Source of the DNA: a virus
Taxonomy: Duplodnaviria > Heunggongvirae > Uroviricota > Caudoviricetes
Virus record (IMG/VR): IMGVR_UViG_2684622552_000007
Span: 1 to 35,384 of that record
Direction: 5' to 3' (one strand)
Length of the DNA: 35,384 nucleotides
The notes under the pieces are model-generated. The model was not told the origin of the DNA, ran no database searches, and saw only the letters and a list, made by a program, of their open reading frames with translations. The translations under genes and the position numbers were made by a program. Shown piece by piece: positions 4,696 through 19,567 of the stretch (within the stretch, counting starts at the first letter, position 1; every line of letters begins with the position of its first letter).

Positions 4696-5970
<1,275 letters not shown>

Positions 5971-14611: not shown

Positions 14612-14653
14612 CAGCATGATTGCCACGGATGGCAACATATTAACGGCATGATA

Positions 14654-14682
14654 TTGACTTTTTGAATAAAGTTGGGTAAATT
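14654..14682 (+). promoter_or_regulatory. Late promoter pR-prime (with overlapping qut region)
   Basis: TTGACT (14654-14659), 17-bp spacer, TAAATT (14677-14682); flanking DNA matches lambda pR-prime by recall. Confidence 0.8.
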
Positions 14683-14689
14683 TGACCCA

Positions 14690-14882
14690 ACGATGGGTTA
14701 ATTCGCTCGTTGTGGTAGTGAGATAAAAAGAGGCGGCGCTTACTACCGATTCCGTCTAGTTGGTCACTTCGACGTATCGTCTGGAACTCCAACCATCGCA
14801 GGCTGAGAGGTCTGCAAAATGCAATCCCGAAACAGTTCGCAGGTAATAGTTAGAGCCTGCATAACGGTTTCGGGATTTTTTA
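14690..14882 (+). ncRNA. 6S late leader RNA (pR-prime to tR-prime transcript, about 193 nt)
   Basis: Starts at ACGATGGG about 8 nt downstream of the -10 and ends at the tR-prime terminator; matches the lambda 6S region by recall. Confidence 0.7.
14823..14882 (+). terminator. tR-prime intrinsic terminator
   Basis: AATCCCGAAAC ... GTTTCGGGATT long hairpin followed by TTTTTTAT. Confidence 0.8.
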
Positions 14883-15279
14883 TATCTGTGTAACAGGTAA
14901 GAGCATTCTCCCTTATGGGGCTTGGCTTAAATGCATTGAGTGCTCTTTCCGTTGTGCTGAATTAAGCGAACACCGGAAGCAGAACCGGATCACCAAATGC
15001 GTACAGGCGTCATCGCCGCCCAGCAACAGCACAACCCAAACTGAGCCGTAGCCACTGGCTATCCTGAACTCATCAGTGATAGTTACGCTGCGGCCTTCTA
15101 TACATGAACTTCGTGAAAGCGGGTGGCAAGAGGTTGCGCTAACAACCTCCTGCCGTTTTGCCCGTGCATATCGGTCACGAACAAATCTGATTACTAAACA
15201 CAGTAGCCTGGATTTGTTCTATCAGTAATCGACCTCATTCCTAATTAAATAGAGCAAATCCCCTTATTGGGGGTAAGAC

Positions 15280-15603
15280 ATGAAGATGCCAGAAAAACAT
15301 GACCTGTTAGCCGCCATTCTCGCGGCAAAGGAACAAGGCATCGGGGCAATCCTTGCGTTTGCAATGGCGTACCTTCGCGGCAGATATAATGGCGGTGCGT
15401 TTACAAAAACAGTAATCGACGCAACGATGTGCGCCATTATCGCCTGGTTCATTCGTGACCTTCTCGACTTCGCCGGACTAAGTAGCAACCTCGCTTATAT
15501 AACGAGCGTGTTTATCGGCTACATCGGTACTGACTCGATTGGTTCGCTTATCAAACGCTTCGCTGCTAAAAAAGCCGGAGTAGAAGATGGTGGAAATCAA
15601 TAA
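15280..15603 (+). CDS. S: Class I holin S (S107 antiholin / S105 holin dual-start motif MKM)
   Basis: [60 protein letters not shown]... matches lambda S by recall. Confidence 0.9.
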
Positions 15604-16063
15604 TCAACGTAAGGCGTTCCTCGATATGCTGGCGTGGTCAGAGGGAACTGATAACGGACGGCAGAAAACCAGAAATCATGGTTATGACGTCATTGTAGGC
15701 GGAGAGCTATTCACTGATTACTCAGATCACCCTCGCAAACTTGTCACGCTAAACCCCAAACTCAAATCAACAGCTGCAGGCCGTTACCAGCTTCTTTCCC
15801 GTTGGTGGGATGCCTACCGCAAGCAGCTTGGCCTGAAAGACTTCTCTCCGAAAAACCAGGACGCTGTGGCATTGCAGCAGATTAAAGAGCGTGGTGCTTT
15901 ACCGATGATTGATCGCGGTGATATCCGTCAGGCAATCGACCGTTGCAGCAATATCTGGGCTTCACTGCCGGGCGCTGGTTATGGTCAGTTCGAGCATAAG
16001 GCTGACAGCCTGATTGCAAAATTCAAAGAAGCGGGCGGAACGGTCAGAGAGATTGAGGTATGA
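15587..16063 (+). CDS. R: Endolysin R (lambda-type lytic transglycosylase)
   Basis: [52 protein letters not shown]... matches lambda R by recall. Confidence 0.9.
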
Positions 16064-16497
16064 GCAGGTTAACCGCGATTATCTCCGCTCTGATTATCTG
16101 CATCGTCGTCTGTCTGTCATGGGCTGTTAATGATTACCGTGATAACGCCATCGCCTACAAAGACCAGCGCGATAAAGCCACATCTATCATCTCTGATATG
16201 CAGAAGCGTCAACGTGATGTAGCTGAACTCGATGCCAGATATACAAAGGAACTTGCTGATGCTAACGCGACTATCGAAAGTCTCCGTGCTGATGTTTCTG
16301 CTGGTCGTAAGCGCCTGCAAGTCGCCGCCACCTGTGCAAAGTCAACGACCGGAGCCAGCAGCATGGGCGATGGAGAAATCCCAAGACTTACAGCAGATGC
16401 TGAACTCAATTATTACCGTCTCCGAAGTGGAATCGACAAGATAACCGCGCAGGTTAACTACCTGCAGGAATACATCAGGACGCAATGCCTGAAATAA
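16060..16497 (+). CDS. Rz: Rz i-spanin (inner-membrane spanin component)
   Basis: N-terminal TM segment [16 protein letters not shown] then coiled-coil periplasmic domain; position after R. Confidence 0.8.
16259..16444 (+). CDS. Rz1: Rz1 o-spanin lipoprotein embedded in the +1 frame of Rz
   Basis: [20 protein letters not shown] lipoprotein signal with lipobox Cys, then Pro-rich mature region [13 protein letters not shown]; AAGGA SD upstream of ATG 16259. Track ORF 16232-16444 is the same frame with an earlier start. Confidence 0.6.
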
Positions 16498-16528
16498 TTT
16501 TTTTGCAAATCACAAAGTCCATTTAATG

Positions 16529-16553
16529 AGCCTCGCGATGCGGGGCTTTTTTA
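16529..16553 (+). terminator. Intrinsic terminator after the lysis cassette
   Basis: AGCCTCGC-GAT-GCGGGGCT hairpin (one G-U pair) followed by TTTTTTAT. Confidence 0.55.
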
Positions 16554-16699
16554 TGTCCGCAGTAAACGCGCTTCACACGCGCGACTTATGAACACAGAGC
16601 CTTTCAGGATGACCCTTGAGGATGCCGGTTTGGTTATCGGTGCCTTTCTGTGGGCCGGAATCCTGTGTGACAAGGTTCATCACTAAAAGGTAATTACCG

Positions 16700-17242
16700 A
16701 TGAATTATCCAACTATCGTTGACGGCATTGATTTCAAAGAACTGGTTTTTATTACCAACAATGACCCTGTCACCGATTCATTTATGGTGGCGAAAGCATT
16801 TCGTAAGCGACATGACAACGTTGTGCGTGATGTAGAAAGAACTATCGCTGCTTGTCCTGAAGAGTTTGATACAAAACTCAATTTTGAGGTTTGCTATAAA
16901 AACAATGAGTTACAGAATGGTAAGCCACAAAAATTCTATCGGCTACGTAAGGATGGGTTGATGCTTTTGGTTATGTCCTACACCAAAAAAGAAGCAATGC
17001 GTATCAAAATTGCTTACATCAACGCATTCAACTGGATGTACGCCATGCTTCAGGTTGGTCATCGTCAATTTGAAGAAGAGAGAAATGCCGTAATGCTGGA
17101 GTACATGAAAGAGAAGGATGTTGCCAGCATGTCAGGTCGCCTGCTTAATCGCTGGGGAAAAATTAAGAAGCCTCAGCTAATGGCGAGAATTGAACGCCTT
17201 GAACAGCACGGGCAAACCGTAATCCCCGGACTCACTAATTAA
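16700..17242 (+). CDS. rha: Rha-family phage regulatory protein (180 aa)
   Basis: N-terminal block VAKAFRKRHDNVVRDVER matches the conserved KRHDNV(L/V)RD motif of Rha proteins (recall). Confidence 0.7.
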   Translation: MNYPTIVDGIDFKELVFITNNDPVTDSFMVAKAFRKRHDNVVRDVERTIAACPEEFDTKLNFEVCYKNNELQNGKPQKFYRLRKDGLMLLVMSYTKKEAMRIKIAYINAFNWMYAMLQVGHRQFEEERNAVMLEYMKEKDVASMSGRLLNRWGKIKKPQLMARIERLEQHGQTVIPGLTN

Positions 17243-17469
17243 CAGCAGTACCACGAAGCAACCCAAGCCAGTAAGTGGGGAAATAACACTGGCAGCCACT
17301 GAAAGATGAACCTCCTGCCTTATGGCAAAAAAGATTCTTTGTGGTGGCGGACTGATGGAAAGACATCGGTTATTGCAGAGACCATTCAATGAGTGGTCTC
17401 GACAATGGCTTATACCCTACACGGGATAACTTAACTGATATCCCTTTTAACGGATAAACGGAGCCAACA

Positions 17470-17712
17470 ATGGCAGAGATTATTCCCATGACTGAAGAAC
17501 AGAAATTCCAGTTAGAGATTTACAAGCTGGTAATGAACCAGAACGCAGCTGCAGAGGAAGCATTTCAGTTCATTGGCACTGACGAGCTGAAGCTTGAGCT
17601 ATTCAAAATTCACTTCCAGTCAGGCGGCGCTAATTCGGATATCACGATCCGCACATTTGAAGCGGTGCGTAAATCGAAGGAAGCGTTAGACCTGTTCACT
17701 ACCGGAGCATAA
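17470..17712 (+). CDS. Hypothetical protein (80 aa) upstream of the terminase genes
   Basis: Track ORF; GGAG upstream of ATG; no family recognised. Confidence 0.5.
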   Translation: MAEIIPMTEEQKFQLEIYKLVMNQNAAAEEAFQFIGTDELKLELFKIHFQSGGANSDITIRTFEAVRKSKEALDLFTTGA

Positions 17713-17714
17713 AC

Positions 17715-18155
17715 ATGGCGCGCCCAACAAAGTATCAAGAGGCGTATGCCGAACAGGCACGCAAACTGTGCTTGCTGGGCTACACCGATGCAGAACTTGC
17801 TGATTTCTTTGAAGTCAGTGAGTCAACTATTAACAAGTGGAAGCTTGATTATCCTAAGTTTTCGGAGTCCATAAAAAAGGGTAAGGCCGTCGCTGATGCA
17901 GAAGTTAGTGACCGTCTTTATCAACGCGCTATGGGCTTCGTGGCTCCAGACATCGATATTCGTGTTATTGAAAACAGAATTGTCGAAACTCCGCTTGAGA
18001 AGTATTACCCGCCTGATACAACTGCCGCCATCTTCTGGCTTAAGAACCGACAGAAGGATAAATGGCGCGACAAGGTTGATCACGAGCTAACAGGCAAAGA
18101 CGGCGGCGCAATCCAGATTGAAACATCACCGATGAGTACTCTATTCGGAAAATGA
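17715..18155 (+). CDS. Terminase small subunit (Sf6-type, N-terminal HTH)
   Basis: 146 aa directly upstream of and overlapping the large terminase; C-terminal GKDGGAIQIETSPMSTLFGK recalled from Sf6 TerS. Confidence 0.7.
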   Translation: MARPTKYQEAYAEQARKLCLLGYTDAELADFFEVSESTINKWKLDYPKFSESIKKGKAVADAEVSDRLYQRAMGFVAPDIDIRVIENRIVETPLEKYYPPDTTAAIFWLKNRQKDKWRDKVDHELTGKDGGAIQIETSPMSTLFGK

Positions 18156-19567
18156 CCTCGATTAATCCTATCTTTGAACCGTTCATTGAGGCGCATCGCT
18201 ACAAAGTCGCCAAAGGCGGTCGAGGTAGCGGTAAGTCATGGGCAATTGCGAGGCTGCTTGTTGAAGCGGCGCGTCGGCAGCCTGTGCGTATTCTCTGCGC
18301 TCGTGAACTGCAAAACAGTATCAGCGATTCGGTAATCCGGTTGCTTGAAGATACCATCGAGCGTGAAGGGTATTCGGCTGAGTTTGAAATTCAGCGTTCA
18401 ATGATTCGTCATCTCGGAACGAATGCTGAATTCATGTTCTACGGCATCAAAAACAACCCGACGAAGATTAAATCGCTCGAAGGCATTGATATCTGCTGGG
18501 TGGAAGAAGCGGAAGCGGTAACAAAGGAATCGTGGGATATCCTGATACCAACCATCCGCAAGCCGTTTTCCGAAATATGGGTGAGCTTTAACCCGAAGAA
18601 CATACTCGACGATACCTATCAGCGATTCGTTGTAAATCCTCCCGATGATATTTGCCTGCTGACGGTGAACTACACCGACAACCCGCACTTTCCTGAAGTT
18701 CTCCGTCTGGAGATGGAAGAGTGCAAACGCAGAAACCCGACACTGTATCGTCACATCTGGCTTGGTGAGCCAGTAAGCGCAAGTGATATGGCAATCATCA
18801 AACGTGAATGGCTTGAAGCCGCAACCGATGCGCACAAGAAACTCGGATGGAAAGCGAAAGGCGCTGTTGTCTCTGCGCATGACCCGTCAGATACAGGGCC
18901 GGATGCTAAAGGTTATGCATCGCGTCACGGTTCGGTTGTTAAGCGCATTGCCGAAGGTCTGCTGATGGACATCAATGAAGGTGCTGACTGGGCAACTTCG
19001 CTGGCGATTGAAGACGGTGCTGACCATTACCTGTGGGATGGTGATGGTGTTGGTGCCGGGCTACGCAGACAGACAACGGAAGCGTTCTCCGGCAAGAAAA
19101 TTACCGCCACGATGTTCAAGGGCAGCGAATCGCCATTCGATGAAGATGCGCCTTATCAGGCCGGAGCATGGGCTGATGAAGTCGTGCAGGGAGACAACGT
19201 TCGCACTATTGGTGATGTATTCCGCAATAAGCGAGCGCAATTCTATTACGCACTGGCTGACAGGCTGTATCTGACATATCGGGCGGTTGTCCACGGTGAG
19301 TATGCAGACCCCGACGACATGCTGAGCTTCGACAAAGAAGCGATAGGCGAGAAGATGCTGGAGAAGCTGTTTGCAGAACTTACGCAGATTCAGCGCAAAT
19401 TCAATAACAACGGGAAGCTGGAGCTTATGACTAAGGTCGAAATGAAGCAGAAGCTCGGTATTCCATCCCCTAACCTGGCTGATGCGCTGATGATGTGTAT
19501 GCATTGCCCAGAGTCGGCTGCGCAACCCGACTATTCCAGTTACTCAATTCCTTGTGGTGTAGGTTGA
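18152..19567 (+). CDS. Terminase large subunit (Sf6/P22-like; ATPase plus nuclease)
   Basis: Walker A KGGRGSGKS, Walker B-like ICWVEEAE; overall match to the Sf6 large terminase by recall. Confidence 0.9.
   Translation: MTSINPIFEPFIEAHRYKVAKGGRGSGKSWAIARLLVEAARRQPVRILCARELQNSISDSVIRLLEDTIEREGYSAEFEIQRSMIRHLGTNAEFMFYGIKNNPTKIKSLEGIDICWVEEAEAVTKESWDILIPTIRKPFSEIWVSFNPKNILDDTYQRFVVNPPDDICLLTVNYTDNPHFPEVLRLEMEECKRRNPTLYRHIWLGEPVSASDMAIIKREWLEAATDAHKKLGWKAKGAVVSAHDPSDTGPDAKGYASRHGSVVKRIAEGLLMDINEGADWATSLAIEDGADHYLWDGDGVGAGLRRQTTEAFSGKKITATMFKGSESPFDEDAPYQAGAWADEVVQGDNVRTIGDVFRNKRAQFYYALADRLYLTYRAVVHGEYADPDDMLSFDKEAIGEKMLEKLFAELTQIQRKFNNNGKLELMTKVEMKQKLGIPSPNLADALMMCMHCPESAAQPDYSSYSIPCGVG

Follow-up and report, generated by a model that had tools for sequence, protein, structure and literature searches.

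Conserved RNA structures in the two non-coding gaps flanking rha in the late operon of a P22-like Escherichia coli phage

The late region around rha

A stretch of phage DNA of 35,384 nucleotides (IMG/VR virus record IMGVR_UViG_2684622552_000007), hereafter the window, was used for the analysis. The window comprises the whole or most of the genome of a P22-like (Lederbergvirus) Escherichia coli phage near HK620, Sf101 and CUS-3. On its + strand, two non-coding gaps, gap 1 (16498-16699, 202 bp) and gap 2 (17243-17469, 227 bp), flank rha (16700-17242, + strand), a cargo gene encoding 180 amino acids with matches to the Pfam domains Phage_pRha and ORF11CD3 (E = 2.7e-23 and 8.7e-26, respectively). 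Comparative analysis revealed conserved structure in both gaps. Gap 1 contains an apparent terminator and a leader with a small hairpin (P1), a long-range helix (P-alpha) and a long irregular hairpin (P2), and gap 2 contains a hairpin domain (H3-H5/H4). The conservation and distribution of these elements and the covariation of P-alpha, P2 and H3 are firm. We consider it probable, if by no means certain, that both gaps are conserved cis-acting RNA parts of the Q-dependent late transcript and also joints at which cargo genes are swapped.

The genes for holin (15280-15603), endolysin (15587-16063) and Rz (16060-16497) precede gap 1, and gap 2 is followed by the DUF2560/hkbM/orf80 gene (17470-17712), the small terminase gene (17715-18155) and the large terminase gene (18152-19567), all on the + strand. 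These late genes overlap or lie 0-3 bp apart. A preliminary description of the window, made from the sequence alone, had given the coordinates and gene context of the two gaps correctly, and its view that they are unusually long holds against such neighbours. A segment of 1.16 kb around both gaps matches prophages in sequenced E. coli at 99% identity, and Sf101, CUS-3 and POCJ13 at 89-93%. In near-identical E. coli prophages, PGAP placed no annotation in either gap.

Terminator and structured leader of gap 1

The first feature of gap 1 is a putative intrinsic terminator after Rz (16528-16554, + strand), judged from its sequence by a terminator scan and folding. It starts 31 nt past the Rz stop codon and consists of a 9-bp stem (GAGCCUCGC/GCGGGGCUU) with 6 G-C pairs and a 3-nt loop, followed by U6; its predicted folding energy is -14.7 kcal/mol (z = -3.0). 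A terminator had been mentioned in the preliminary description, and the stem with its nine pairs (16528-16548) and the T6 run are present. HK544 and Stx phages share the first ~55 nt of gap 1 at 100% identity, the records of HK106, phi80 and HK544 carry a 'terminator' annotation at the homologous site, and a hairpin with a T-run lies upstream of P1 in 107 of the 139 homologous leaders. In 933W-type Stx phages R and Rz enclose the whole unit of terminator, P1, leader and ant, which shows that the terminator moves together with the cassette. Terminators inside the late operon are known from P22-like phages, where they had been left unexplained and were proposed to halt transcription that is not antiterminated (PMC8022706).

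The leader covers about 130 nt upstream of rha and has a constant anatomy, with P1, a linker, the 5' strand of P-alpha, P2 and the start codon at 16700. More than 130 distinct sequences retain it, with compensatory changes. P1 (16567-16583, + strand) is a small GC hairpin, CGCGC-UUCACAC-GCGCG, found in alignments A2, A3 and A5, the last of which contains type A leaders only (52 distinct sequences). Its loop is conserved (NUCNCAC), its inner pairs are invariant, 88.8% of its cells are paired and its closing pair covaries (UA:10, CG:9, UG:7). The linker between P1 and the rest of the leader, with 10-15 nt, is the most variable part.

P-alpha is a long-range helix on the + strand between 16593-16599 (CACAGAG) and 16646-16652 (the UUUCUGUG region), its 3' strand being located in the apical loop of P2. 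About 10 complementary variants of this helix were identified: CACAGAA/UUCUGUG, CUCAGAA/UUCUGAG, CCAAGAA/UUCUUGG, CCCAGAA/UUCUGGG, CAAAGA/UCUUUG, CAGAGAG/CUCUCUG, CGAGAG/CUCUCG, CCCGAG/CUCGGG, CGAUAA/UUAUCG and GAAAG/CUUUC. At least six contiguous P-alpha pairs are present in 124 of the 132 distinct leaders, compared to 19% when the 5' strand is taken from another class. In A5, 97% of the P-alpha cells are paired, with AU:28, CG:12 and UA:12 at one position. One leader (L114:2503-2655) looks recombinant, its 5' part belonging to one type and the rest to another, and it shows a single P-alpha mismatch (CAAAGAA versus UUCUGUG); this is the exception that would be expected if co-inheritance normally maintains the helix.

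P2 (16600-16690, + strand) was identified from minimum free energy (MFE) folds and covariation. At its base CCUUU (16600-04) pairs with the Shine-Dalgarno (SD) sequence of rha, AAAGG (16686-90), in the MFE fold; the sub-helices 16606-12/16677-84, 16614-18/16671-75, 16619-22/16661-64 and 16625-28/16655-58 follow, with a conserved 6-nt bulge, GUGUGA, at 16665-70. Analysis of A5 revealed that 99% of the P2 cells are paired, with double changes from A-U to G-C and from U-A to C-G, and that the whole leader structure is 96% paired, compared to at most 47% in a control in which the partners were slid by 1-3 columns. Paired changes distinguish the P2 arms of the two main leader types, A and B (GACCCUUG/CAAGGUUC versus GAGCCUG/CAGGCUC, and AGGA/UCCU versus AGAAA/UUUCU), and one leader type has a compensatory insertion in P2 (GGAUAACCGG/CUGGUUAUUCC). 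The SD sequence is paired in the full-length MFE fold of 119 of 136 leaders, and the end pair of the SD helix occurs as CG:61 and UG:23. G.U and U.G intermediates in the SD helix and in P-alpha pair on the + strand only, the sense strand of the late operon.

The 5' strand of P-alpha adjoins the base of P2 with no linker, and 2 nt only separate its 3' strand from the top of P2; with these spacings a straight P2 and P-alpha cannot coexist. For the window, folding predicts a three-way junction with P-alpha in nascent RNA reaching 16655-60, and P2 in the full-length RNA (-44.1 versus -37.0 kcal/mol).

The sequences of both motifs were gathered with motif-derived patterns, and the invariance of CUGUG, GG.UCA and AAAAGG is by construction. 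Mixed type A and type B alignments made with MAFFT and analysed with RNAalifold gave a poor consensus, with counts blurred by register shifts; per-sequence pairing tests and the type-A-only alignment were used in their place. Two further readings of conserved nucleotides were rejected: the conserved GUGNGA bulge does not match the K-turn sequence, and the GGA motifs considered as CsrA sites are confined to type A.

The presence of two conserved pairings that compete topologically or form a pseudoknot raises the question of a switch, in which a host or phage signal (a small molecule, a protein or a small RNA), sensed by the P-alpha junction, would free the SD sequence for cargo translation, as an ON riboswitch or an rpoS-type leader activated by a small RNA. 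In size, the junction with its pair of small hairpins is comparable to a small aptamer, strong conservation is seen at unpaired nucleotides such as CCUUUCAG, and in one sequence type the 5' strand AACCGG keeps two partners. However, the cargo genes have no common metabolic theme, no Rfam match was found, the small hairpins inside the junction have weak covariation support, the conservation of the unpaired stretches is partly an ascertainment effect and no trans factor was identified. We therefore regard a signal-controlled switch as decidedly unlikely; if true, such a leader would constitute a new class of phage-borne riboregulator travelling with interchangeable cargo across Enterobacterales.

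Promoters in the gaps, proposed in the preliminary description, were not recovered. A sigma-70 scan of 15900-18100 (hexamers with 16-18 bp spacing) found no + strand site, and under the same strict criteria only one of 124 distinct homologous leaders passes, compared to 2% of shuffles. The sole sigma-70-like match in that interval (16093-16120, - strand, ATGACA-16-GATAAT, 10/12) is located inside Rz and is probably a chance match, the count being below the shuffle expectation. This outcome bears on the explanation that rha is expressed from the prophage as a moron, with a promoter in gap 1 and the gap-2 hairpins as its terminator. Such an arrangement would resemble classical morons, which carry their own promoter and terminator, as does pid of P22 with its own promoter, long 5' untranslated region (UTR) and own terminator on the - strand (PMC8835761). 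A minority of leaders contains TTCACA-16-TATTAA across P1 (9/12), and H4 of gap 2 is followed by UUUU. However, the -10 element would then fall in the most variable part of the leader, the linker after P1; some variants have another sequence in place of the U-run behind H4, and no U-run follows H3; and in BTP1 lysogens rha is outside the highly expressed genes (PMC7067206). A moron of this kind is considered very unlikely.

Comparison of leader-bearing loci revealed a wide range of downstream genes. The leader precedes rha in Sf101, phiKp_30, phi80 and P22, ant in 933W-type Stx phages, sb54 in ST64B, a KilA-N gene in HK97 and a GIY-YIG-like gene in epsilon34. A pattern derived from the 3' part of the leader identified 119 IMG/VR stretches and 49 contigs from species-representative genomes of many Enterobacterales genera (Escherichia, Salmonella, Citrobacter, Enterobacter, Raoultella, Kosakonia, Serratia, Pantoea, Erwinia, Tatumella, Rahnella, Rouxiella, Brenneria, Buttiauxella, Arsenophonus, Symbiopectobacterium and others), and nearly all of these matches proved to be true copies. 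The open reading frames (ORFs) directly downstream of the leaders form at least 12 sequence clusters. Their Pfam domains (Phage_pRha, KilA-N with P63C, P22_AR_N, ANT, Bro-N, HNH_3 and T5orf172/MUG113) are among the shuffled DNA-binding and nuclease domains that typify phage antirepressor-like proteins. Judged by these contexts, the leader looks like the front end of a portable cargo cassette.

Some phages and prophages carry two leader-cargo cassettes (L004:284-435 and 1599-1821; L106:700 and 2063; L248:3484-3652 and 4811-4979), and the leaders of such pairs are of differing sequence types. In POCJ13, for example, ant occupies the interval from R to Rz, and rha follows Rz. Contigs labelled Cellvibrionaceae, Bacillota, Xanthomonas pisi, Collinsella and Archangium (L258, L278, L280, L282, L284 and L287) also contain leaders that match E. 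coli phage sequences exactly or almost exactly, which is likely to reflect contamination or mis-binning in the assemblies concerned.

Mosaic joints and hairpin domain of gap 2

Gap 2 is 96-99% identical in very different lambdoid phages, and its + strand as a whole folds much better than shuffles (z = -4.85). BLAST against related loci revealed a chain of mosaic blocks with joints at 17232/3, 17367-72, 17391, 17421-28 and 17456-58. Segment A (17233-17367, + strand), delimited by BLAST breakpoints, is a near-invariant mosaic spacer with almost no variation among 31 distinct copies; hairpins H1 (17245-17348) and H2 (17350-57/17364-71) are predicted for it. The core of gap 2 (17370-17457) is more widespread than segment A, and a second IMG/VR scan provided 66 distinct true copies of it, with RNAalifold run on 63.

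H3 (17370-17408, + strand) is an extended hairpin. A 2x2 internal loop separates its outer helix (17370-75/17403-08) from an inner helix of 10 bp (17378-87/17391-17400), which is closed by the loop AAU. Among the 63 sequences, six pairs of H3 show compensatory changes and almost none is broken. The variants GAGACC/GGUCUC, AAAGCC/GGCUUU and AAGCCC/GGGCUU were found, along with AUUG/CAAU versus AUUA/UAAU in the outer helix, and the G.U intermediates fit the + strand only. The remainder of the core is predicted by the RNAalifold consensus to form H5 enclosing H4 (17410-17457, + strand). The arms of H5 (UUAU-CC, 17410-16, and GG-AUAA, 17452-57) end 12 nt before the DUF2560 start codon, and H4 (17423-30/17437-44) includes GGGAUA (17423-28) paired with UAUCCC (17439-44), followed by UUUU. 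The fold of 17368-17458 has a z-score of -6.33, compared to -3.77 for the - strand.

H3 directly adjoins the stop codons of differing upstream genes, and in cargo-less phages, mEp460 and 569R4 among them, it adjoins the U-run of the Rz terminator, which indicates that the two gaps are halves of one ancestral lysis-to-head intergenic region. From this arrangement, insertion of a leader-cargo cassette would have split the ancestral region. Past GGAUAAA the sequence follows the next gene (DUF2560, an Stx/HK97-type region or a third type), and in two of those three types an SD sequence and a start codon occur within about 10 nt.

Several single loci illustrate the mosaic nature of gap 2. In the Klebsiella phage phiKp_30 (L014:1657-2037) a Gp49-family gene is inserted at 17367/17369. 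The pid moron is absent from the window and was thus rejected as a content of gap 2; in P22/BTP1 it is inserted at 17428/17456 on the - strand (BTP1 L001:2540-3168). HK97 (L005:2026-2105; window 17470-17549) keeps the first ~80 nt of DUF2560, followed by an HNH gene region; in this cos phage the stub seems to be left over from a P22-like arrangement. In ST64T (L007:1720-1765) a second H3 copy of a different type (CCATTACAAAGCCCATCTACGGGTGGGCTTGATAATG) lies directly after Rz, upstream of block A and the usual H3, which suggests that H3 copies act as recombination joints.

These breakpoints bear on the explanation that the gaps are boundary or linker joints acting at the DNA level in module exchange, perhaps disseminated by gene conversion near mobile nuclease cargo, and have no RNA function. 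The high identity across otherwise unrelated phages fits this explanation, as do the sharp breakpoints at 17232/3, 17367-72, 17421-28 and 17456-58, the differing inserts at the joints (pid, Gp49 and various cargo), the HNH or T5orf172 nucleases among the cargo and the boundary sequences that the CUS-3 record places elsewhere in the late region. Joints, however, need identity only, whereas P-alpha, P2 and H3 keep their complementarity through two-sided changes with strand-specific G.U intermediates. As sole explanation, a DNA-level role is therefore considered unlikely; it is compatible with an RNA role. The gaps resemble the boundary sequences (bsq) and morons of lambdoid phages in being short conserved joints with accessory genes between essential late genes, and the breakpoints and flanking diversity reveal what characterizes a bsq, a short conserved sequence joining non-homologous modules. 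No boundary sequence is annotated at the gap sites in the HK620 and CUS-3 records. The gap-1 cassette differs from a classical moron such as pid in being preceded by a terminator and in lacking its own promoter.

A pac-related element, another content considered in the preliminary description, does not agree with the distribution of gap 2. In the cos phage HK97, 225 bp of this sequence recur at 97% identity after a KilA-N accessory gene and upstream of gp74, an HNH gene, and the sequence also occurs in HK140, HK446, mEp235 and epsilon34; its core is found in Stx phages and mEp460, which have other terminases. Since the same element is present in a cos phage and in other terminase contexts, a pac role for the gaps appears unlikely.

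Both gaps had been described as lacking convincing genes, and no conserved small ORF was found in either. The 32-aa ORF reported for gap 1 (16588-16686, + strand) exists and is judged non-coding; it is not the sole ORF there, as a 25-aa ORF with a TTG start (+ strand) and ORFs of 36 and 40 aa (- strand) are also present. In gap 2, ORFs of 28 and 35 aa (+ strand) and of 39-70 aa (- strand) occur and none is conserved. That small protein genes account for the gaps, namely the 32-aa ORF in gap 1 and ORFs of 22, 28 and 35 aa in gap 2, might seem to follow from records that annotate coding sequences (CDSs) here (P22 'orf25', Sf101 gp64, ST64T 'orf118'), yet the annotators picked differing ORFs, none of which has an SD sequence, and conservation does not extend to the start codons. 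Sf101, VT1-Sakai, ST64B and phi80 lack the ATG of the 32-aa ORF, and 89 of 140 distinct leaders have no ORF of at least 20 codons across its span. In other H3 variants the 22-aa ORF (17390-17458, P22 'orf25') has no ATG and is interrupted by in-frame stops, and an A6 to A7 indel in two of the 31 distinct segment-A copies breaks the 28- and 35-aa ORFs. Small protein genes are thus extremely improbable as an explanation. Records of HK620, CUS-3, P22, HK97, epsilon34 and Sf101 show nothing, or inconsistent small CDSs, at the motif positions, and database annotators have placed spurious small CDSs on both motifs.

The ST64T 'orf118' (L007:1878-2234; window 17322-17429) is an annotation artefact, an upstream extension in which the DUF2560 gene is fused in frame to the upstream 35-aa ORF because the H4/H5 segment 17422-17455 is deleted in that phage. 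It contains an internal MAEIT... start with the same GGAGCCAACA ribosome-binding site. The epsilon34 feature 'similar to N-terminus of orf118' inherits this artefact.

Searches for known RNA elements returned little. ARAGORN identified no tRNA or tmRNA gene in the whole window, in line with the lack of a recognizable cloverleaf noted before. Rfam 15 gave no match at the gathering score in the whole window, and at E<=10 the interval 16400-17600 gave two matches only, both far below threshold. One was Proteo-phage-1 (17 bits versus a cut-off of 42 bits) and the other was the Xanthomonas small RNA asX2 (16528-16606, - strand; 24 bits versus 70, E = 0.038), a weak match over the antisense of the terminator and P1 that we regard as spurious. 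Pas, AgvB, AsxR, StxS and similar prophage small RNAs were rejected as candidates, being located elsewhere, upstream of the lysis genes, or represented by Rfam models without a match here. The small RNAs suggested in the preliminary description are thus not supported by Rfam as free-standing members of known families, while its broader suggestion of RNA elements is borne out by the comparative analysis. Covariance-model searches, cited there as a means of dismissing such elements, are null for known families only, and cis-acting structured segments of the late mRNA are a content that it did not foresee.

Possible control of cargo expression in the late operon

The following sequence of events is proposed. 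The terminator would halt RNA polymerase lacking antitermination, whereas Q-modified polymerase would pass. The P2 fold would then bury the rha SD sequence as a second lock after the terminator. P-alpha may act in one of two ways: it may compete with P2, as an on/off switch or through an 'on' fold that exists transiently in the nascent RNA, or P2 may fold back at the 6-nt bulge with P-alpha locking a pseudoknot. The ribosome-binding site of the cargo might be opened by an alternative fold, a processing event or a factor. As outcome, Rha (elsewhere Ant, KilA-N or HNH proteins) would be made from late antiterminated transcripts only and at a restricted rate. Such a double lock is consistent with the lack of a promoter, the published suggestion on terminators and the finding that rha is not highly expressed in lysogens. 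H3-H5/H4 would form a constant 5' UTR of the first head/packaging gene, for which a role as a processing or stability element, or as an element that sets translation, is plausible.

A number of results weigh against this reading of the gaps. We infer the sequestration of the SD sequence from folding, and the functional consequences are all inferred as well. The CCUUU/AAAGG helix hardly varies and AAAAGG is fixed by the search pattern, so its pairing rests on folding and a C-to-U wobble. A static pseudoknot is equally allowed beside a kinetic switch; P-alpha appears in the MFE fold of the truncated 5' RNA in only 32 of 136 leaders, and a kinetic switch is thus not generally backed by thermodynamics. 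The leader z-score of -2.2 is modest and no better than that of the - strand. Many copies are kin by recent recombination, so independent events are fewer than the counts of covarying cells suggest. The structures of the near-invariant H4, H5 and segment A are predictions only. Finally, the gap-2 core is found downstream in 35 of the 80 leader-bearing loci with enough downstream sequence, which indicates that the leader and the core are independent modules and not an obligate pair. Qin and DLP12, cryptic prophages of E. coli K-12, contain neither of the two motifs, and K-12 transcriptomics is consequently uninformative.

Comparison with known systems revealed partial resemblances. The N leader of lambda, next to nutL in the early pL operon, has an RNase III-sensitive hairpin that covers the ribosome-binding site of N. 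The gap-1 leader is similar as a predicted cis-acting hairpin in a lambdoid mRNA leader that would sequester the translation start of the next gene, and as a long irregular duplex of the kind cut by RNase III, although cleavage here is conjectural. H3, which resembles an irregular hairpin of the RNase III type, counts 6 + 10 bp on the two sides of its 2x2 loop, and P2 counts about 25 bp interrupted by bulges, compared to the irregular hairpin of about two turns cut by RNase III. The two leaders have no sequence kinship, the gap-1 leader is located in the late operon, and it alone has a second long-range helix and unrelated downstream genes. In the 5' UTR of the MS2 maturation gene and in hok mRNA, folding is sequential, the SD sequence being closed at equilibrium with a transient translatable 5' fold. 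A long pairing that closes the SD sequence and a 5' fold that may compete with it are predicted for the gap-1 leader as well, whereas its kinetic behaviour is a prediction for the window and not general across homologues. The rpoS leader also resembles the gap-1 leader functionally.

T4-like lytic phages contain the promoter-early stem-loop (PeSL), a repeated stem-loop element with an early promoter that flanks variable accessory ORFs and seemingly mediates their shuffling. PeSL and the gap-1 cassette are alike in placing a repeated regulatory element with a stem-loop beside swapped accessory genes; the gap-1 cassette differs in having a terminator and a translational leader and no promoter. 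Antirepressors under RNA-level control include sar-ant of P22, c4-ant of P1/P7 and the proposed 24B_1-d_ant (PMC12197685, PMC4426718). These systems parallel the proposed action of the gap-1 leader in their tight translational control around the ribosome-binding site, but use trans or antisense RNAs, whereas an intramolecular leader fold is proposed here, and the site proposed for 24B_1 is inside the ant coding region and not in a leader. The d_ant gene of Stx phages, downstream of R, is itself a cargo gene carrying a leader of the gap-1 type.

Literature searches found no description of the gap-1 leader or of the H3-H5 motif. We rate both motifs as new to Rfam and as belonging to known kinds, the first a translational leader and the second a 5'-UTR or processing hairpin domain. 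Drawings of lambdoid late operons usually show a single message with protein genes only, and genome papers have recorded the terminators and intergenic blocks inside it while offering no explanation for them (PMC8022706). If the proposed reading is true, a widespread unit of a terminator followed by an SD-locking leader would explain how potentially dangerous cargo, such as antirepressor-type regulators and nucleases, can ride in the late operon without leakage in lysogens, and the leader unit would provide a concrete handle on cargo swapping at fixed joints. H3-H5 would then be a candidate processing or translation signal for the head-gene message across different packaging machines.

A further non-coding stretch of the late region, 668 bp between a Q-like gene and the holin gene (14612-15279), exceeds either of the gaps flanking rha and presumably holds the late promoter, qut and the terminator region. 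The homologous segment in CUS-3 is annotated as 'bsq3 boundary sequence'.

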